DNA from: Candidatus Woesearchaeota archaeon
GTDB taxonomy: Archaea; Nanobdellota; Nanobdellia; Pacearchaeales; GW2011-AR1
Assembly: GCA_964482915.1 (NCBI GenBank)
Contig: CAYZYU010000001.1
Span: forward strand, 34,266-88,563
Length of the DNA stretch: 54,298 bases
Reading direction: 5' to 3'
Every line of letters begins with the position of its first letter. Position 1 is the stretch's first letter. Under the pieces are notes generated by a model. That model did not search any database, had not been told where the DNA came from, and saw nothing but the letters and a program-made list of their open reading frames with translations. Both the position numbers and the translations under genes were made by a program. Below, piece by piece: positions 7,542 to 54,298 of this stretch.

Positions 7542-9911
7542 ATGGGGTTATGCATGGGAGACTCAAAATTTGACTTTAAACATATTGAAAATAAATGGAG
7601 AGAATTCTGGGAAAAGGAAAATATCTTCCAGGCGGATTTATCTAAAAAAGAGATATATTCTGTAGACACAGATCCTCCAACAGTTTCAGGGGCAATGCAT
7701 ATTGGACATGCATTTCATTATTCTCAAGAAGACTTTATTGTGAGATTTCAGAGAATGTTTTTATCAAATAAAAATGGAAGTGTATTTTATCCATTTGGAA
7801 CAGATGATAATGGGCTTCCAACTGAGAGGTTGGTTGAGAAAAAAAATAATGTTAGAAGTAAAGACATGCCAAGAGAAGAGTTTATTAAACTATGCTTGAA
7901 AACTTTAAAGGAAATTTTGCCTAATTTTAGGAAAGATTGGAAAGATTTAGGTATTTCTTGTGATTATAATGTCTGTTATTCTACAATAGATGATAATTCC
8001 AGAAAATTATCTCAAAAATCTTTTTTGGATTTGTATAAGAAAAAAGAAATCTACAAAAAGGAGTTTCCTACTATCTGGTGTCCCGAATGTCAAACTTCTA
8101 TTGCTCAGGCAGAATTAGAAGATAAAGAAGAGAAGAGTCTTTTTTCTACTTTGAAATTTTCTTGTGGTAGAAAAGATTTACTTATAGCAACAACAAGACC
8201 AGAACTTTTAGGTGCATGTGTTGGGGTTTTTGTACATCCTGCAGATAAGAAATACAAAGCTTTTGTTGGAAAAAATGCTAAAGTTCCTTTATTCAATTAT
8301 GAAGTTCCAATAATAGCAGATACTTCTGCTGATCCTGATAAAGGGACAGGTGCTTTGATGGTTTGTTCTTATGGTGATAAATATGATGTTGATGCAATTA
8401 ACAGATATAAATTAATTCCAAAGATTATTTTTGATAAAACTGGAAGAGTAAATTTTGGAGAATATAAAGGATTAAAAGTTAAGGAAGCAAGAAAAAAGAT
8501 TCTTGAAGACTTAAAAAAAGGTAACTTAATAACAGAGCAGAAAGAGATTGTTCATACTGTTAATGTGCATGATAAGTGTGGGACTCCTATAGAATTTGCA
8601 ACAACAGAACAGTGGTTCATTAAAATACTTGACAAGAAAAGTAAATTTATTGAACAGGGAAATAAAGTTAAGTGGTATCCTGAATTTATGCATAAGAGGT
8701 ATGATAACTGGGTTAATGGATTAGAATGGGACTGGAATATTTCTAGAGAAAGACATTTTGGAGTACCTATCCCTGTTTGGGAATGTAAAAAATGTAAAGA
8801 GATAATCCTTGCTGATGAAAAAGAATTACCTGTTGATCCTCTTCAAATTAAAAAGAAGTGCCCTAAATGTAAATTAGAAGCTAAATCAGAGGAAAAGGTT
8901 TTAGATACCTGGGCAACATCTTCTCTCACACCCCAATTAGCAAGTTCACTTATTCAAAATAAGATTAAAATTCCTTATTCATTAAGACCCCAAGCACATG
9001 ACATAATAAGAACTTGGGCATTTTATACAATTGTTAAGAGTTATATGCATGAGAATGAACTTCCCTGGAAAAATATTGCTATTTCTGGAAATGTATCTCT
9101 TGCTGGAGAAAAAATGTCAAAGAGTAAGGGTAATGTTGTTGATCCTAAATTAGTTCTTGAGAATTATGGCGCAGACGCTCTTAGATTTTGGGCTGCTGGG
9201 AGTAAACTTGGTAGCGATTTAGATTATCTGGAGAAAGATTTAGTTGCAGGAATTAAAATGATAAATAAATTGATTAATGCTTCTAAGTTTGTTTTCATGA
9301 ATCTTAAAGATTATAATCCTAATAATAAACCTCATAAGCTGGAAAAAATGGATGAAATATTTTTGGAGAAACTTAATGTATTGGTGAAATATTGTACAGA
9401 GAGTTTTAAAGATTATGAATATTCCAAGGCCAAATTAGATACCGAGAAATTCTTTTGGAGTGATTTTTGTGATAATTATTTGGAGATTGTAAAAAAGAGA
9501 GTTTATCAGGGAGAAGGAAACCCAAAAATCTCTGCACAATACACCCTTTATCATTCTCTTTTAACAATTATTAAGTTAATTGCACCTATAATGCCTTTTA
9601 TTACAGAAGAGATTTATCAGGAATATTTCAAGAAAAATGAGAAAATAAAATCTATACATATAAGTTCTTGGCCTGAATATGAAGAAAAAGAAAATAAAAC
9701 TCATCTGAAGATTTTAGATAAAATGTATGAAATCCTTTCTCAAGTAAGGCAGGAAAAGTCCAAGAATAAAAAAGCAATGAATGCAGAAATTGTTTTAACT
9801 TTACCTAAATCTGATTATGAAGAAATAAAAACTGTTTTGGAAGACTTGAAAAATGTAGTTAATGCTAAGGCAATTAGAGAGGGAAAGCAGTTTGAAGTAG
9901 AATTTTTATAA
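7542..9911 (+). CDS. valS: valyl-tRNA synthetase
   Basis: HIGH-type MHIGHAF, KMSKS-type KMSKSKGNVVDP, TTRPELLGACVGVFVHP, GTGALMVCSYGD, YGADALRFW. Start is either 7542 or 7554. Confidence 0.85.
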   Translation: MGLCMGDSKFDFKHIENKWREFWEKENIFQADLSKKEIYSVDTDPPTVSGAMHIGHAFHYSQEDFIVRFQRMFLSNKNGSVFYPFGTDDNGLPTERLVEKKNNVRSKDMPREEFIKLCLKTLKEILPNFRKDWKDLGISCDYNVCYSTIDDNSRKLSQKSFLDLYKKKEIYKKEFPTIWCPECQTSIAQAELEDKEEKSLFSTLKFSCGRKDLLIATTRPELLGACVGVFVHPADKKYKAFVGKNAKVPLFNYEVPIIADTSADPDKGTGALMVCSYGDKYDVDAINRYKLIPKIIFDKTGRVNFGEYKGLKVKEARKKILEDLKKGNLITEQKEIVHTVNVHDKCGTPIEFATTEQWFIKILDKKSKFIEQGNKVKWYPEFMHKRYDNWVNGLEWDWNISRERHFGVPIPVWECKKCKEIILADEKELPVDPLQIKKKCPKCKLEAKSEEKVLDTWATSSLTPQLASSLIQNKIKIPYSLRPQAHDIIRTWAFYTIVKSYMHENELPWKNIAISGNVSLAGEKMSKSKGNVVDPKLVLENYGADALRFWAAGSKLGSDLDYLEKDLVAGIKMINKLINASKFVFMNLKDYNPNNKPHKLEKMDEIFLEKLNVLVKYCTESFKDYEYSKAKLDTEKFFWSDFCDNYLEIVKKRVYQGEGNPKISAQYTLYHSLLTIIKLIAPIMPFITEEIYQEYFKKNEKIKSIHISSWPEYEEKENKTHLKILDKMYEILSQVRQEKSKNKKAMNAEIVLTLPKSDYEEIKTVLEDLKNVVNAKAIREGKQFEVEFL

Positions 9912-16271: not shown

Positions 16272-17006
16272 ATGAAAACAGAGAAGATTTCAACAGGAAG
16301 TTATGATCTGAATACTTGGCTTTATGGAGGATATGAAAGAGATATTATTACTATGATTGCAGGTCCTCCTGGTTGTGGTAAAACTAATTTTGTCATTTTA
16401 GCTTCATGTAGTCAGGCTAAAAAAGGTAAAAAAGTCATTTTTATAGACACAGAAGGAGGATTTAGTGTTGAGAGAGTAAATCAGATTGTAGGTAAAGAAA
16501 ACAGTGAAGGAGTTTTAAAGAATATCTTTTTATTAAAACCAACTAATTTTGAAGAACAAAAAAAAGATTTTTCTAAATTATTAAATTTTGTAAAAAAAGA
16601 GGATATTGGTCTTATTGTAATTGATGGTATGGCAATGCTCTATAGATTAGAACTTGGAGAAGCCCATAATTTAAAAGATGAGGAAAAAATAAGAGAAGTA
16701 AATAGAGAAATGGCAAAACAGATGAAGATAATGGCAGAGATATCAAGGAAGCAAAATATTCCCATCTTAATAACAAACCAGGTTTACCTGGAATTTATAC
16801 CCGAAGAAGAGTTTAAGAAAGGAGTTGAAAGGAATACTAATATTGTGGGGGGAGATTTATTCAAATATTGGAGTAAATGTATAATTGAATTGAAGAATGA
16901 TAATGGAAAAAGGAAAGCAATACTGCTTAAACACAGAAATTTACCTCAAAAAGAGATGGGTTTCTTGATTAAGAATGAAGGTATTTTTAAGAAAGGATGG
17001 ATATGA
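16272..17006 (+). CDS. radB: DNA repair and recombination protein RadB
   Basis: ISTGSYDLNTWLYGGYERDIITMIAGPPGCGKTNF (Walker A), Walker B LIVIDGM; RadB-sized RecA-superfamily protein. Confidence 0.8.
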   Translation: MKTEKISTGSYDLNTWLYGGYERDIITMIAGPPGCGKTNFVILASCSQAKKGKKVIFIDTEGGFSVERVNQIVGKENSEGVLKNIFLLKPTNFEEQKKDFSKLLNFVKKEDIGLIVIDGMAMLYRLELGEAHNLKDEEKIREVNREMAKQMKIMAEISRKQNIPILITNQVYLEFIPEEEFKKGVERNTNIVGGDLFKYWSKCIIELKNDNGKRKAILLKHRNLPQKEMGFLIKNEGIFKKGWI

Positions 17007-49472: not shown

Positions 49473-49644
49473 GCCCCGATAGTTCAGAGGCCAAGAACGC
49501 CACCCTCTCAAATTACGCCGGGATTCAGTCGATGAGATCATAATTCCAGCCTTCTCTAAGGCAGGCTTATTAAATTTTATCGCCTTATTTTTCTTAGGGC
49601 GATGGAGTACGGTGGTAACCCGAGTTCGAATCTCGGCCGGGGCG
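49473..49644 (+). tRNA. tRNA-Glu (anticodon CUC) with a 99-nt intron at 37/38
   Basis: Exons 49473-49510 and 49610-49644. Acceptor GCCCCGA/CCGGGGC (A7:C66 mismatch), D stem GUUC/GAAC, anticodon stem CCACC/GGUGG, loop CU-CUC-A|C, T arm CCGAG-UUCGAAU-CUCGG, discriminator G. Confidence 0.8.
49511..49609 (+). other. tRNA-Glu intron with a canonical bulge-helix-bulge motif
   Basis: Central 4-bp helix CUCU (49505-08) / GGAG (49604-07). 3-nt bulges CA|A (49509-11) and UA|C (49608-10). Inner helix AU/AU plus CGCC (49516-19) / GGCG (49598-601). Confidence 0.7.
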
Positions 49645-49817
49645 TTTATCCTTAGGTTTAACATAGCTATATAAAACGAATAATTCTGCGTAGAAATGAT
49701 GCAGTTTTTGAACAGAGAGGTGAAATAAATGGTTTGGTGCTTAGAAAGGGAGGTGAACTAGTTAAATTCTTAAAAGCTAAACAAAATATTTATAAATTAC
49801 ATATATATCTAATATAT

Positions 49818-49970
49818 ATGCCTAAAAAGCAGATAATTGTAAAATTTGAGGGGTCTGAGATTCTTGAGAGAAAAGCTTCTAAGTTTGGAACTGGTGCTCA
49901 TGTAATTATTCCTAAAGAATACATAAACAAAAAAGTAAAAATTATTATGGAGGATGAAGATGACAAGTAA
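49818..49970 (+). CDS. small SpoVT/AbrB-like (DUF2080-like) protein
   Basis: 50 aa from ATG 49818: MPKKQIIVKFEGSEILERKASKFGTGAHVIIPKEYINKKVKIIMEDEDDK. The G.GAHVIIPKEYI..KVKI pattern is AbrB/DUF2080-like. Overlaps the giant ORF start by 17 nt. Confidence 0.5.
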   Translation: MPKKQIIVKFEGSEILERKASKFGTGAHVIIPKEYINKKVKIIMEDEDDK

Positions 49971-52900
49971 AAAGTATTTTTTTGCTTTAATCAGCATAAT
50001 TTTGATAACACTCTTATCCTATGAGGTTTTAGCAGGGACTAATGTTCCAGATTGTGGAATAACAATCAATATCTCAGGACAATATGAATTAAACGCGGGA
50101 ATTTCTGGGACAGCAACTTGTCTAACAATTAATACAAGTAATATAGAACTAGATTGCAAAGGAAATACTATTTCTTATGGTTCAGATGGAGTTAATGGAA
50201 GAATTGGAATATCTGTTGCCCTTGGAACAGTTTATCTTGAAAATATCACAATAAAAAATTGCATAATTCAAGACACAAATCCTGCTGGAACCACGGGGTA
50301 TGGAATATATGCATTAAGAACATCTAATTCATATATAATTAACAATACAATTAATACAAGCGGAACTGCTACAAATCACGGGATTTATTTATCTACTGCA
50401 AGTCAAAATAATCTTCTTGAAAATAATACCATAAATGCTTATGGAAGCACTACAGGAAACTATGGGATTTATTTAATTTATCAATCAAATAATAACACAA
50501 TTAGAAACAATGAAGTAAAGGCAACAGGAACAACAACAAGCTATGCACTCATGCTTTATAGCTCAGAATATAATTTAATAGAAAACAACAATTTTTCAAG
50601 TTACACTCTTTTAACAACAGGAAATTCAGATATGAATGTAGTTTATTTATACTATGGTTCAAGATATAATATTTTAAGAAATAATTACATTTATTCAGAT
50701 GCTGAAGCAAGAAATTACCATATTTATCTAAATTTAAATAATAATTATAATATCATTGCAAATAATACTATAATTCCAAATGATGATGAAGGAACAAACC
50801 CTGGAATTTATATTCTTGGTTCTGATTACAATCTTGTAGAGAATAATACCATTAGAACAAATGGAACAACAGCCAATTATGGGGTTTGGTTAGGAGCATC
50901 TTCAACAGGAAATATGATTAATAAAAATAATATTATCACAAATGGAACTACAACCAACAATTACGGAATTTATTTGGTAAGTGCACTTTACAATAATATA
51001 ACAGAAAATCAGATCTCCTCAAATGGATTAACAACAGGTAATGCAGGAATAACTTTATCAAGTGCCCAAAGAAATTACCTTGCAAGAAATAATATTTCTA
51101 CAAGTGGGACAACAACAGGATATGGAATTTATTTGACTGGTTCTGATTATGACACAGTAGAAGATAATGATATTTCTACATTTGGAACAAGCACTGCAAA
51201 TGATGGAATCTATTTAATCTCTTCTACAAACAATAACATAATAAACAACAGAATAACTGCAAATAGCACCTCTTCTGGAAATATTGGTATTGCTTTATAT
51301 ACCTCAACAGGAAATTCTTATGTTTATAATAATACTATAAAAACTGATGGAACAACTACAAATTATGGTATTTTATTACAGACTGCAAATAATAATTCGA
51401 TAGTAAATAATCAAATATCAACCAGTGGAACAACTACAACAAATCATGGAATTTATCTTTATATAAGTGCAAATGCAAACAAAATCTACTATAATAATAT
51501 CTCTACATATGGCACAACAACAAATCATGGGATTTCACTTAGCACAACTTCAGATGGAAATGAAATTGTTGGAAATTATATAATAGCTAATGGCTCAACA
51601 ACAGCCTCCGCAACAACAACAAATAATTTTGGAATTGCTGCTGCTACAAGTTGTTATAATAATCTTATGGAAAATAATACAATACTAAATTCCGGAGGAA
51701 GGTATAACTATGGTATATATATTTCAGTAGAATCTGGATATTCTACAATTAGAGGAAATAATATTACTACTGGAGGAAGTGGGGCCACAAATGCAGGAAT
51801 TTATCTTTCAGAAAGCAGAAACAACCTTCTAGAAGAAAATATAATCTCTACTTCAGGTTCTGCTACAGATTACGGTATTTATCTGTATTCTAATGCAAAA
51901 TATAATTTTGTTAAGAAAAATAATATTACAACCTCAGGAAGTACTAATTCTTATGGAATTCTTCTTGATGCAGTAATTCCAAACTTCCCCCACAATAATT
52001 CTTTTCAAGAAAATAATTTTATTAGTATTGCTGGAACAGAATTTAGATTTGCTGATGCAGAAATAGATGAAAATTATTTAATTAGCCAGATTATTGACAG
52101 TTACTTATTTACTGGAATTGGAAGCAAAATGATTGTTAGAAATGACTCTGCAGGAGAAATAAAATTCTTAGATAGATTAACTGGTTCTGGAACAGGATTT
52201 AGTGATGATGTATACATTTTAGAGAATTATGCTTTTATTGATTCGAGTATCCCAGGATTAAACAAGTCAGCAGAGATAACCATTTATAATTTACCAACAA
52301 CTTCAAATGAATTACAAATTTACAGGAATGGTATAATCTGCAGTGATTGTTTTAATTTAACTTCAATGCAAGCAGGAAATGTAACATTTAATGTAACACA
52401 AGGAGGAGGATACTCAATTAATTCCTCAAGTTCATCTCCTTTAATAGAATTAGATTTCCCTGAAAATGATTATTTAACAAATCAGCAAAATATTAATTTT
52501 AATTTTACAGCTAGAGATGATTCTGTAGGAGATTTAAATTGTAGCATTTATATTGATTCTATTTTAAATCAAACCAATTCAACAACTCAAAATAATACTC
52601 TAACTAATTTTGCTGCTAGTGGATTAACTGAAGGAAATCATAACTGGAATATTGAATGTTTTGATTCAGCAGGAAATAGAAATATTTCTGAAACAATAAA
52701 TTTTACAATAACAATTTCACAATCATCCTCATTATTTAATTATCCAGAGAATAAATCTTATTTTAATAATTTAGACTTTATATTGTTAAATTATACTGTT
52801 TTAGATTTAGATTTAAAGATAATGACTGCTTGGATTTATGGGGATGAAATTCTTCTAAATACAACTTCAGGATTAACTAATGGTTCATCTTTAGTTTACA

Positions 52901-54298
52901 ATTGGACAAGTTTAGATTTAGGACAATATAACTGGTCTATAATAATCTGGAATGGAATAAAGAACTCTTCTATTGAATATTCTTACTTTAATAATATTAA
53001 TTTAACAATAAATTGTGAAGCAGGAGGAGATTATCTTGAAGATCCAACTGTTTTAATTCAAGGAAGAATAAATGACAGTAGCGGGATAGTTTCATTAAGT
53101 TCACAAATAATTAATATTTCTATTTACAATGATTCCACAGAGGAAATAATCACTTCTTCAAATATAACCACAGAATCAAATGGTGTATTTAATAGTATAT
53201 TTCCTGGATTGGAAATAGGAAATTACACTGTTTATACAAAAGTTAATTATCAAGGAATTGAAATAAATAGTTCAGACTCATTTAAAATTTCTCTTGGATA
53301 TGAAGCAGGTTACAATGCAGGATTTATTGCTGGAAATGAATCAGGATATATTTCTGGATTTGATTATGGTAATATCACAGGATTTAATTTAGGAAATATC
53401 ACAGGATTTATACTTGGAAACAATACTGGTTTCACATTAGGAAATACAACTGGATTTGTATACGGTAACCTCACAGGATTTGTTTTAGGAAATTCAACTG
53501 GTTACATTTTAGGTAATGCAACTGGATTTACATTAGGAAATTATACTGGGTTTATATTAGGAAATCAAACAGGATTTATAATAGGAAATATTTCAGGTTT
53601 CAATCTTGGTAATTCAACCGGTTTTACACTTGGAAATTATACTGGATTCATATTAGGAAACATTTCAGGATTCTACTTTGGAAACCAGACAGGTTATACT
53701 ACAGGTTACAATGCAGGATTTATTGCTGGAAATGAATCAGGATATATTTCTGGATTTGATTATGGTAATATCACAGGATTTAATTTAGGAAATATCACAG
53801 GATTTATACTTGGAAACAATACTGGTTTCACATTGGGCAACTCAACTGGTTATACCTTGGGATTTAACACAGGTAATATAACCGGATTTACTCTAGGTAA
53901 TACTACCGGCTTTGTATACGGAAATAATACTGGTTATATTTTAGGATTTAATACAGGCAACTTAACAGGCTTCACATTAGGAAACACAACTGGCTTCGTT
54001 CTTGGCAACTCTACAGGTTATATTTTAGGTAATGCAACTGGCTTTGTATATGGTAACACAACAGGATTCATATTAGGAAACACAACAGGATTTGTATATG
54101 GAAATATCACTGGATTTGCTTTGGGTAATTCCACCGGATTTACACTTGGAAATTTAACAGGTTATATTCTTGGAAATCAAACAGGTTATAACGCAGGATT
54201 CAGCACAGGAAACACAACTGGATTTAATCTAGGAAATACTACAGGTTTCACATTGGGCAACTCAACTGGTTATACCTTGGGATTTAACACAGGTAATA
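49954..54298 (+). CDS. giant secreted/surface protein, 3'-truncated by the window (signal peptide, parallel beta-helix, beta-sandwich modules, octapeptide array)
   Basis: Hand translation from ATG 49954 (or 49960) to 54298 has no stop codon (1,448 codons). Not on the supplied track. N-terminus MKMTSKKYFFALISIILITLLSYEVLAG. Confidence 0.85.
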   Translation, partial: MKMTSKKYFFALISIILITLLSYEVLAGTNVPDCGITINISGQYELNAGISGTATCLTINTSNIELDCKGNTISYGSDGVNGRIGISVALGTVYLENITIKNCIIQDTNPAGTTGYGIYALRTSNSYIINNTINTSGTATNHGIYLSTASQNNLLENNTINAYGSTTGNYGIYLIYQSNNNTIRNNEVKATGTTTSYALMLYSSEYNLIENNNFSSYTLLTTGNSDMNVVYLYYGSRYNILRNNYIYSDAEARNYHIYLNLNNNYNIIANNTIIPNDDEGTNPGIYILGSDYNLVENNTIRTNGTTANYGVWLGASSTGNMINKNNIITNGTTTNNYGIYLVSALYNNITENQISSNGLTTGNAGITLSSAQRNYLARNNISTSGTTTGYGIYLTGSDYDTVEDNDISTFGTSTANDGIYLISSTNNNIINNRITANSTSSGNIGIALYTSTGNSYVYNNTIKTDGTTTNYGILLQTANNNSIVNNQISTSGTTTTNHGIYLYISANANKIYYNNISTYGTTTNHGISLSTTSDGNEIVGNYIIANGSTTASATTTNNFGIAAATSCYNNLMENNTILNSGGRYNYGIYISVESGYSTIRGNNITTGGSGATNAGIYLSESRNNLLEENIISTSGSATDYGIYLYSNAKYNFVKKNNITTSGSTNSYGILLDAVIPNFPHNNSFQENNFISIAGTEFRFADAEIDENYLISQIIDSYLFTGIGSKMIVRNDSAGEIKFLDRLTGSGTGFSDDVYILENYAFIDSSIPGLNKSAEITIYNLPTTSNELQIYRNGIICSDCFNLTSMQAGNVTFNVTQGGGYSINSSSSSPLIELDFPENDYLTNQQNINFNFTARDDSVGDLNCSIYIDSILNQTNSTTQNNTLTNFAASGLTEGNHNWNIECFDSAGNRNISETINFTITISQSSSLFNYPENKSYFNNLDFILLNYTVLDLDLKIMTAWIYGDEILLNTTSGLTNGSSLVYNWTSLDLGQYNWSIIIWNGIKNSSIEYSYFNNINLTINCEAGGDYLEDPTVLIQGRINDSSGIVSLSSQIINISIYNDSTEEIITSSNITTESNGVFNSIFPGLEIGNYTVYTKVNYQGIEINSSDSFKISLGYEAGYNAGFIAGNESGYISGFDYGNITGFNLGNITGFILGNNTGFTLGNTTGFVYGNLTGFVLGNSTGYILGNATGFTLGNYTGFILGNQTGFIIGNISGFNLGNSTGFTLGNYTGFILGNISGFYFGNQTGYTTGYNAGFIAGNESGYISGFDYGNITGFNLGNITGFILGNNTGFTLGNSTGYTLGFNTGNITGFTLGNTTGFVYGNNTGYILGFNTGNLTGFTLGNTTGFVLGNSTGYILGNATGFVYGNTTGFILGNTTGFVYGNITGFALGNSTGFTLGNLTGYILGNQTGYNAGFSTGNTTGFNLGNTTGFTLGNSTGYTLGFNTGN
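50245..51975 (+). repeat. about 20 imperfect 22-27-aa parallel beta-helix (PbH1/NosD-like) coils, in frame
   Basis: Recurring N-N-x-I-x-x-x-G-(T/S)-T-T-x-N-Y-G-I-Y-L, for example NNTINTSGTATNHGIYLS, NNTINAYGSTTGNYGIYLI, NNIITNGTTTNNYGIYLV, NNQISTSGTTTTNHGIYLY. Confidence 0.75.
53296..54298 (+). repeat. 24-nt-periodic in-frame tandem array encoding the octapeptide G-N-x-(T/S)-G-(F/Y)-x-(L/I/V/Y)
   Basis: About 41 units to the window edge, for example GNITGFNL GNITGFIL GNNTGFTL GNTTGFVY GNLTGFVL GNSTGYIL. Punctuated by GYNAGFIAGNESGYISGFDY and GFNT half-units. Exact DNA repeats: 53306-53438 = 53702-53834 and 53824-53878 = 54244-54298. Confidence 0.9.

Follow-up and report, generated by a model that had tools for sequence, protein, structure and literature searches.

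The giant gene and its surroundings

At the right-hand end of a 54,298-nucleotide stretch of DNA from a Candidatus Woesearchaeota archaeon (assembly GCA_964482915.1, contig CAYZYU010000001.1, positions 34,266 to 88,563 of the forward strand; the whole stretch is called the window below) lies one very long reading frame, the giant gene, whose product we describe here together with the small gene that overlaps its start and the tRNA gene that precedes both. On translation the frame 49954-54298 (+) holds 1,448 sense codons and zero stops. An earlier note on this DNA had reported the same open frame, had called it the largest coding investment of the window and had put its absence from the supplied track of open reading frames (ORFs) down to the want of a stop. 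Our re-translation agrees; the runner-up among the coding units of the window is only 818 aa long, and the ORF lister does skip frames that run off their source. A chance origin is excluded because, at a GC content of ~30%, about one in 12 random codons (~8%) would be a stop, so that by our own arithmetic the probability of a chance open frame is ~1e-52. The ORF listing contains no other ORF of at least 80 aa within 49954-54298 on either strand. The locus carries the following features, the folds being those of AlphaFold2 (AF2) models with their predicted local confidence (pLDDT).

49473..49644, +, tRNA-Glu(CUC): exon 1 49473-49511, intron 49512-49610 (99 nt), exon 2 49611-49644 (ARAGORN with introns)
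49634..49652, +, left copy of the 19-nt direct repeat CGGCCGGGGCGTTTATCCT, tRNA 3' end and trailer (blastn-short)
49789..49796, +, TATA-box-like element TTTATAAA, 21 nt upstream of the DUF2080 ATG (read from the sequence)
49818..49970, +, DUF2080 (AbrB/SpoVT-like) gene, 50 aa (NF033496, PF09853)
49960..50037, +, predicted signal peptide (MTSKKYFFALISIILITLLSYEVLAG): hydrophobic aa 6-27, AF2 helix 7-19, cleavage predicted
50038..52059, +, beta-helix head of ~22-24 coils (Beta_helix E=6e-29, NosD E=6e-26; AF2 pLDDT mostly 85-98)
52060..52464, +, beta-rich cap or junction domain (AF2; conservation by region)
52465..53295, +, three immunoglobulin (Ig)-like modules, aa 836-920, 921-1013 and 1014-1112 (Big_13, AF2)
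53296..54253, +, octad array G-N-x-[TS]-G-[FY]-x-[LFY] with GxxxG periodicity, broken off by the contig end (Tandem Repeats Finder, TRF; period-8 profile)
54254..54298, +, probably a mis-assembled tail, a copy of an earlier array unit and not the true continuation (last 55 nt = 53824-53878)

Where does the giant gene begin, and where does it end? The sequence GGAGG at 49949-49953 directly abuts ATG 49954, which had been taken as the start, and sits 6 nt upstream of ATG 49960, two codons further on in the same frame. The near-identical proteins P0001-P0003 begin at MTSKK in gene-caller output. Because of the GGAGG spacing and these called starts we regard ATG 49960 as the likelier start. At the other end, the final 55 nt of the window repeat 53824-53878 letter for letter, and from 54254 on the window departs from three independent full-length copies of the gene (L006 and L008 among them). 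The last ~45 nt are probably a repeat-induced assembly artefact; the contig ends at 54298 because the assembly ran into the gene's own repeat array. Contigs L001-L004 and L018 likewise break inside the giant gene. Extension of the contig, as the note had proposed, failed with the sibling contigs, which we located by exact-protein look-up of neighbour genes and which are all broken in the same gene, and succeeded with a near-identical gene from another species, which supplied the 3' end.

Architecture of the full-length protein

That gene encodes P0001, a protein of 2,067 aa on a 179 kb contig of GCA_964612685.1 (locus L006), which we use as the full-length reference. In the homology search it showed 99% identity over 100% of the query, and the upstream gene order of L006 is the same as that of the window. 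By this comparison the window frame represents the 5' 70% of a ~6.2 kb gene with a predicted product of ~2,067 aa. The regions of P0001 are as follows.

aa 1-26, predicted signal peptide (hydrophobic segment, AF2 helix)
aa ~27-700, right-handed parallel beta-helix of 22-24 three-stranded coils (Pfam, AF2)
aa 701-835, beta-rich cap (AF2)
aa 836-1112, three Ig-like sandwiches (Big_13 on the first; AF2)
aa 1113-1457, octad array (repeat analysis, period-8 profile)
After the array, three confident beta-sandwiches, then a Cys-rich segment, then one more sandwich (AF2)
aa 1972-2000, transmembrane helix (hydropathy; AF2, fragment 971-990)
Last 67 aa, basic helical tail (AF2)

P0001 has no PGF-CTERM-type C-terminus, and the simplest topology would be type I, which places the beta-helix at the greatest distance from the membrane. 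By hydropathy the N-terminal hydrophobic segment is present in 20 of the 22 orthologues (P0001-P0022), at 43-57% identity, and the C-terminal one in all 22; P0008 and P0012 miss the former only via their called starts, and in L009 a signal peptide can be read from an upstream ATG. The signal or anchor peptide of the earlier note is thus found. Its description of the protein as secreted holds for the export signal and fails for the rest, since a C-terminal transmembrane helix and a cytoplasmic tail make the product something other than simply secreted. An export signal, a membrane anchor, a beta-helix and Ig-like modules are combined in one polypeptide, the combination by which adhesin-like and pectin-lyase-like surface proteins are recognized.

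Full-length orthologues with 44-57% identity occur in many Woesearchaeota/Pacearchaeota genomes, some of them on contigs of 650-670 kb that are probably near-complete genomes. The relatives as a whole, labelled ‘right-handed parallel beta-helix repeat-containing protein’ in the databases, come from metagenome-assembled genomes (MAGs) of Woesearchaeota, Pacearchaeota and Nanoarchaeota, which fits the reduced, DPANN-type archaeon that had been supposed. A viral origin was considered and rejected: there is no relative in IMG/VR, and the matches in BFVD are generic beta-helix and FN3 (fibronectin type III) folds.

In most orthologues the C-terminal transmembrane helix is followed by a PRC-barrel (P0005 1567-1633, P0019 1879-1952, P0009 1930-1999), which would face the cytoplasm. 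The window-clade allele has an unrelated 67-aa helical tail in its place. Just before the last sandwich there are two alternatives: P0001-P0004 have a Cys-rich module with the pattern C-x4-W-x-C-x2-W-S-x-C (P0001 aa 1800-1850), while P0132 and most orthologues have at the same position an alternative module, ECCLD-x-N-x-N-x2-CD. Pfam offers no match for the Cys-rich segment or the cytoplasmic tail of P0001 even at E=10, and none for the P0132-type module.

For the head, Pfam PF13229 (Beta_helix) scores 101.1 bits against a cut-off of 25.9, the NosD-type family PF05048 91.7 against 23.6 and the repeat TIGR03804 24.5 against 19.45. The AF2 model of head, cap and three Ig modules has a pLDDT of 87.7 and a predicted template modelling score (pTM) of 0.68; it shows 22 regular three-strand coils at aa 96-697, mostly with a pLDDT >85, plus an N-terminal start. 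The earlier count of about 20 coils is thereby raised to 22-24, and the capping region and the three beta-sandwich modules, two of them homologous, are all recovered: the first as the beta-rich domain of aa 701-835, which is the best conserved region among orthologues (mean identity 56%), the others as Ig modules of which 1 and 2 share 31% identity (E=3e-5). Foldseek matches of the Ig region are tandem FN3/Ig/MG-domain proteins, including the adhesin SiiE, and when both AF2 models were searched against the PDB, all that came back were tandem Ig/FN3/MG-domain proteins of a generic kind.

Is the head an enzyme? Across 20 orthologues conservation reaches 85% or more at 255 positions, most of which are occupied by N, G, T, Y and C; those in the head appear to be ladder, turn and disulfide residues, and the only conserved charged residues of the beta-helix are R120 and E154. 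The head would thus probably be a binding or structural rod and not an enzyme, a reading taken from aligned, repetitive coils and short of proof. A NosD function was rejected, since the TIGR04247 equivalog reaches 77.3 bits against a cut-off of 300 and the repeat type alone is held in common.

The octad array and the probable stalk

The octapeptide array of the earlier note was recovered both by TRF, with periods of 24/48/96, and by the period-8 profile. It contains a 396-nt tandem duplication, the 148-nt segments 53306-53453 and 53702-53849 being 97% identical, and its ends are fixed: it starts GY.AG..AGFIAGNESGY and stops SASL.LDKI. About half of the orthologues have no array; the rest carry 37-88 GxxxG units. 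Even near-identical alleles vary, P0002 having one additional octad and P0003 (L007) being without one 132-aa block, which may be a genuine difference in length or a collapse in assembly. From this distribution the array appears to be an optional stalk module of variable length.

How might it fold? Yae1_N matches at 51.8 bits against 27.5 and the NCBIfam FliH equivalog at 65 against 293, matches that are best read as a product of the four-residue glycine period. We rejected an alpha-helical, FliH/Yae1-like array: its body is rich in N, T, F, Y, I and V and lies in the ectodomain, while FliH/Yae1 repeats are acidic and Ala-rich, and only the first ~3 units (GYEAGYNAGFIAGNESGY) resemble that type. 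The AF2 monomer model of the array has a pLDDT of 23-43 and no confident fold. Among solved structures the array sequence matches just one, the octads near the C-terminus of phage T4 gp5, the cell-puncturing spike; this region forms a triple-stranded beta-helix and shares the eight-residue period with an in-register G-N-x-T. The match (E=2.5e-4, ~85 residues) is weak, and periodicity could account for it. In the array the conserved hydrophobics stand at positions 6 and 8, a register that differs from that of gp5, where the conserved hydrophobic residue is a Val two residues before Gly. By analogy with gp5 a trimeric beta-structured stalk may be considered as a lead only.

Array-like octads are by no means confined to this family. 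At E<=1e-3 they occur in 1,322 clusters among 1.84 billion representative proteins, and the best 150 of these 1,322 clusters fall into three flavours, of which the sequon-bearing GN.TG[FWY] octads are the one accompanied by a signal peptide and a C-terminal transmembrane helix. In smaller, unrelated archaeal membrane proteins, both type I and type II, the octads lie between the anchor and a globular domain. Such a distribution is as expected of a spacer or stalk.

P0001 has 113 N-x-S/T sites (sequons) compared with 58.5 expected from shuffles (z=8.5). The observed/expected ratios differ by region.

Array, 3.8x (z=11)
Cap and Ig modules, 2.6x
Post-array modules, 2.2x
Beta-helix head, 0.84x
14 other window proteins, pooled, 0.98x

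Sequons had been described as dense throughout; this applies to the array, the cap with the Ig modules and the post-array modules, which are enriched 2.2- to 3.8-fold, but not to the head. The pattern would fit a glycan-coated stalk with a bare head.

A small DNA-binding gene overlaps the start

The 50-aa protein encoded immediately upstream matches NCBIfam NF033496 at 49.3 bits (cut-off 22) and Pfam PF09853 at 26.2 (cut-off 21.5), and the end of its gene overlaps the giant gene start by 11 nt. The TATA-box-like element TTTATAAA has the same spacing in the divergent allele of L015; judging this spacing by the general geometry of archaeal promoters, we infer that a leaderless bicistronic transcript may start from it. 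We found neither a transposase near the DUF2080 gene in the window or L006 nor any literature on DUF2080 function.

Is this overlap peculiar to the window? In 10 of the 10 orthologous loci examined a small gene of 49-62 aa overlaps the giant gene start by 4-11 nt, an arrangement that would couple the translation of the two. Its fold falls into three types.

DUF2080: window, L006, L014, L015
Ribbon-helix-helix (RHH)/DUF6364-like: L011, L020, L022
GerE-type helix-turn-helix (HTH): L009, L019, L021

Since the wider neighbourhoods of the ten loci are unrelated while the overlapping small gene persists, the conserved unit appears to consist of a small DNA-binding protein and the giant fibre, the regulator having apparently been swapped for non-homologous ones. 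The small protein is presumably an autoregulator. The three folds (DUF2080/AbrB-like, RHH/DUF6364-like, GerE HTH) are the same three that type II antitoxins use.

Near-identity between species

How do the alleles of this locus differ from one species to the next? In ten flanking genes the window and L006 are separated by synonymous distances (dS) of 0.75-3.0 and by amino-acid identities of 58-97%. In the DUF2080 gene and 1,431 codons of the giant gene, three synonymous differences are found (dS 0.003) and zero replacements. The left edge of this near-identical tract is the tRNA-Glu(CUC) gene: its intron in the window has 11 differences of its own with respect to L006, and identity is complete from ~49591 on. 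Contig L003 of the Logan assemblies crosses the junction, and L005 stops 1 nt past the tRNA. In L014, from a third GTDB species representative, the flanks are ~77% identical to those of the window, and there is 1 mismatch in the 1,508 nt that follow the tRNA. In the fourth species (L015) synteny and the tRNA are kept; the DUF2080 protein there is 72% identical and the giant protein 38%, so that a divergent gene, and no empty site, occupies the same position. From these comparisons we conclude that one allele has apparently spread recently across at least two, probably three, species.

Within the gene the alleles are mosaics. L008 and L006 are identical over 4 kb, then differ with a dS of 0.18 across the post-array ectodomain and are then identical again. 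Diversifying selection on this variable 3' segment was rejected, as dN/dS between the two is 0.21, which is purifying; the pattern would reflect mosaic recombination and not positive selection in that pair. L023 shows 87% identity over the post-array sandwiches, followed by unrelated C-terminal modules in an unrelated genome context; it belongs to a different genome with a third mosaic allele and is not the right flank of the window. We read the locus as a probable hypervariable surface-protein locus at which alleles are replaced by recombination. As in variable surface-antigen loci, the phylogeny of the giant gene is discordant with that of its flanks; surface-protein variation between related archaea, at the level of S-layer (surface-layer) genes, is described for example in Haloferax species (PMC5867893).

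By what route might an allele move? The tRNA-Glu(CUC) gene is unannotated, and default ARAGORN and Rfam both overlook it; its exon 2 does not differ among five GTDB species representatives. The intron, which follows the anticodon loop, is ~90% conserved in four species where the adjoining intergenic DNA is unalignable, and this suggests that the intron itself is under constraint. The repeat CGGCCGGGGCGTTTATCCT was found through its 16-nt core (blastn-short, E=8.8e-4) and lengthened by eye to 19 nt. Only L006 shows the right copy, at ~16975-16993, 7.3 kb downstream; the contig of L008 stops inside the repeat. Just within each copy there are imperfect inverted repeats, CCTTAGGTTTAAC / GTTAAACCTTAGG. 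At L006 16314-16930 a 103-aa ORF and an overlapping YoeB/ParE-like ORF, likely a toxin-antitoxin pair, end ~45 nt before the right repeat. L006 thus has the tRNA at one end and a partial repeat of it at the other, as tRNA-targeted elements do.

Like tRNA-linked islands, then, the tract lies directly 3' of a tRNA, has a 19-nt tRNA-end repeat at its far boundary and carries a toxin-antitoxin-like pair distally. Unlike them it encodes no integrase or recombinase, the 7.3 kb segment holding the DUF2080 gene, the giant gene, the 103-aa ORF and the YoeB/ParE-like ORF. The exact tRNA-to-right-flank junction of an empty site gave 0 matches in JGI metagenomes, and a pattern search with the right junction returned the same species again only (L018). 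The 19-nt repeat hints at a past site-specific integration. Because there is no integrase and no empty site, and because L015 has a divergent gene there, the replacement of alleles by homologous recombination at a fixed locus is at least as likely. L006 also holds a 14-nt copy of the tRNA-Glu 5' end (GCCCCGATAGTTCA) at 9463-9476, 37 nt upstream of the tRNA; it is not present in the window and may be the remnant of an earlier rearrangement.

What might the giant protein do?

We put it at slightly better than an even chance that the giant protein is a type I membrane-anchored, probably N-glycosylated, adhesin-like surface fibre of a Woesearchaeota/Pacearchaeota-type DPANN archaeon; a role in cell-cell attachment or in the envelope is plausible by analogy. 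After Sec export and signal-peptide cleavage the protein would be anchored by its C-terminal helix. The beta-helix would then form the membrane-distal tip of a stalk made of the Ig-like modules and the array, by a rough estimate several tens of nanometres out from the membrane. Glycans would coat the stalk, because sequons are 2-4 fold enriched there, while the bare head would bind to a partner cell or substrate through the latter's glycans or envelope polymers, and the copy number of the array would set its reach. The giant gene would be the second cistron of a transcript whose first cistron, the overlapping gene for a DNA-binding protein of ~50 aa, autoregulates; in this clade the unit, directly 3' of tRNA-Glu(CUC), would be an exchangeable cassette.

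Several points weigh against this reading. The step to adhesion is taken from architecture, and both signal-peptide cleavage and glycosylation are predicted. The GN.T octads are shared by T4 gp5, which is not glycosylated, so that by analogy the N-x-T motif of the array could be structural and not a glycosylation site. An array with no confident predicted fold makes guesses of the geometry and the length of the stalk. An orthologue is present in every syntenic species examined, and the full-length architecture is kept in very small genomes; both observations fit an essential envelope (S-layer) component as well as an adhesin. As regards exchange, the cross-species identity of L014 rests on one co-assembly, in which 174 nt of tRNA shared without a mismatch might in principle have served as the bridge for a chimeric join.

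Might the protein then be an S-layer (canopy) protein, with anchor, long stalk and lattice-forming distal domain in one polypeptide? We consider this rather unlikely, though it is the chief alternative. Membrane anchoring and N-glycosylation potential, both characteristic of S-layer proteins, are found here in the transmembrane helix and the 113 sequons, and the stalk is rich in Ig-like modules. The many genomes with full-length orthologues, some of them probably near-complete, and a positional orthologue in four of four syntenic species point the same way; archaeal S-layers built from one stalked polypeptide are on record (10.64898/2026.08.21.746120). Archaeal division involves PRC-barrel proteins (10.1101/2023.03.28.534520), and the PRC-barrel of most orthologues would be in keeping with an envelope protein that is linked to the division machinery. 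On the other hand, the S-layer proteins summarised in 10.1101/2023.10.27.564410 and 10.64898/2026.08.21.746120 include none with a beta-helix lattice domain. The S-layer candidates of a cultivated DPANN archaeon are Ig-only and the most highly expressed, its beta-helix proteins being separate and read as interaction factors (10.1101/2023.10.27.564410). Moreover, the array is dispensable and its length varies even between near-identical alleles, which would change the height of a lattice.

The adhesin-like fibre can also be taken further, in a form that we think unlikely. The two-gene unit would be a mobile ‘surface-identity cassette’ at a tRNA-Glu hotspot, repeat-bounded, equipped with an addiction module and integrase-free, whose acquisition would reset the specificity of attachment or recognition; the array would be an undescribed, glycan-decorated oligomeric beta stalk that tunes reach, and in most family members the cytoplasmic PRC-barrel would couple the fibre to the division machinery.

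It is improbable that the protein is a cell-anchored polysaccharide lyase or hydrolase, digesting the envelope of a host or environmental polymers. The fold does belong to the pectate-lyase/CASH superfamily, the structural matches include viral beta-helix and pre-neck-appendage models, and degradation of the host wall has been proposed for the pectin-lyase-like proteins of Nanobdella (10.1101/2023.10.27.564410). Yet across the 20 orthologues the helix shows no cluster of acidic or basic residues that is conserved, its conserved positions being those of ladders and turns; in the AF2 model its coils are unusually regular and free of the long loops that usually build active sites; and no catalytic family rises above threshold in Pfam or NCBIfam.

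More doubtful still is that the near-identity between species is an artefact of assembly or binning, in which the conserved tRNA would have served to join one species' contig to the gene of another: the MAGs L013 and L014 come from co-assemblies, the tRNA with its intron is identical over 174 nt in L006 and L014 and the giant gene repeatedly breaks assemblies, but the 11 intron differences of the window leave only ~54 nt of exact identity for a false join, L003 passes the junction unbroken and 100% identical to the window where a Logan k=31 assembly would have broken at a branch, L014 has a private single-nucleotide difference inside the tract and the L006-type arrangement recurs in six independent assemblies.

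Comparison with known surface proteins

Beta-helix and Ig-like surface proteins are known from Methanobrevibacter and Methanosphaera as adhesin-like proteins (ALPs) (PMC11532034), and Nanobdella aerobiophila, a DPANN archaeon in culture, has sequon-rich surface proteins with a pectin-lyase fold and Ig-like domains (10.1101/2023.10.27.564410); a role in cell-cell contact has been proposed for both. The giant protein resembles them in its N-terminal right-handed beta-helix followed by Ig-like modules, in having a terminal transmembrane helix and in its many N-x-S/T sites. It differs in that no sequence-level orthology to them was found, the homologues here being from Woesearchaeota, Pacearchaeota and Nanoarchaeota. 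The giant-protein family is anchored C-terminally, whereas most ALPs have an N-terminal helix; further differences are the octad array, the predicted cytoplasmic PRC-barrel of most members and the overlapping small DNA-binding gene that is always upstream.

A second comparison is with Staphylothermus tetrabrachion, the Pyrobaculum colossal surface-layer protein (SLP) and the SlaB-type anchors, which share the C-terminal membrane anchor, the Ig-like modules and the glycosylation, heavy in them and predicted here (10.64898/2026.08.21.746120). As in stalked S-layer proteins, a long stalk would hold a distal domain tens of nanometres above the membrane. Their stalks are coiled coils or Ig arrays, whereas here the stalk is partly a Gly-rich octad repeat; their distal domain is a lattice-forming Ig core, whereas here it is a beta-helix. 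In the literature we found no description of the octad stalk module, of an obligatory overlapping regulator gene, of the PRC-barrel tail or of the sharing of alleles across species.

A beta-helix/Ig surface protein is thus a known and ordinary kind for DPANN archaea and in itself no surprise to a specialist. What sets this gene apart is its near-identity amid saturated flanks, and it is the pattern of exchange, together with the conserved two-gene unit, that is worth following up. Two further leads, the small regulator gene with its overlap and the octad stalk, are unstudied, and each recurs well beyond this locus. There is a practical consequence as well: since short-read assemblies mostly cut or collapse the giant gene, array length and 3' modules are unreliable in MAGs.

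A life attached to other cells is supposed for DPANN archaea, and we know of no molecules that set their partner specificity. The giant gene, the largest in a very small genome and one whose product would expose a bare beta-helix on a long, probably glycosylated stalk, is a well-defined candidate. If the exchange between species is true, surface identity in these archaea would be a horizontally traded trait, which offers a concrete hypothesis for their host range.

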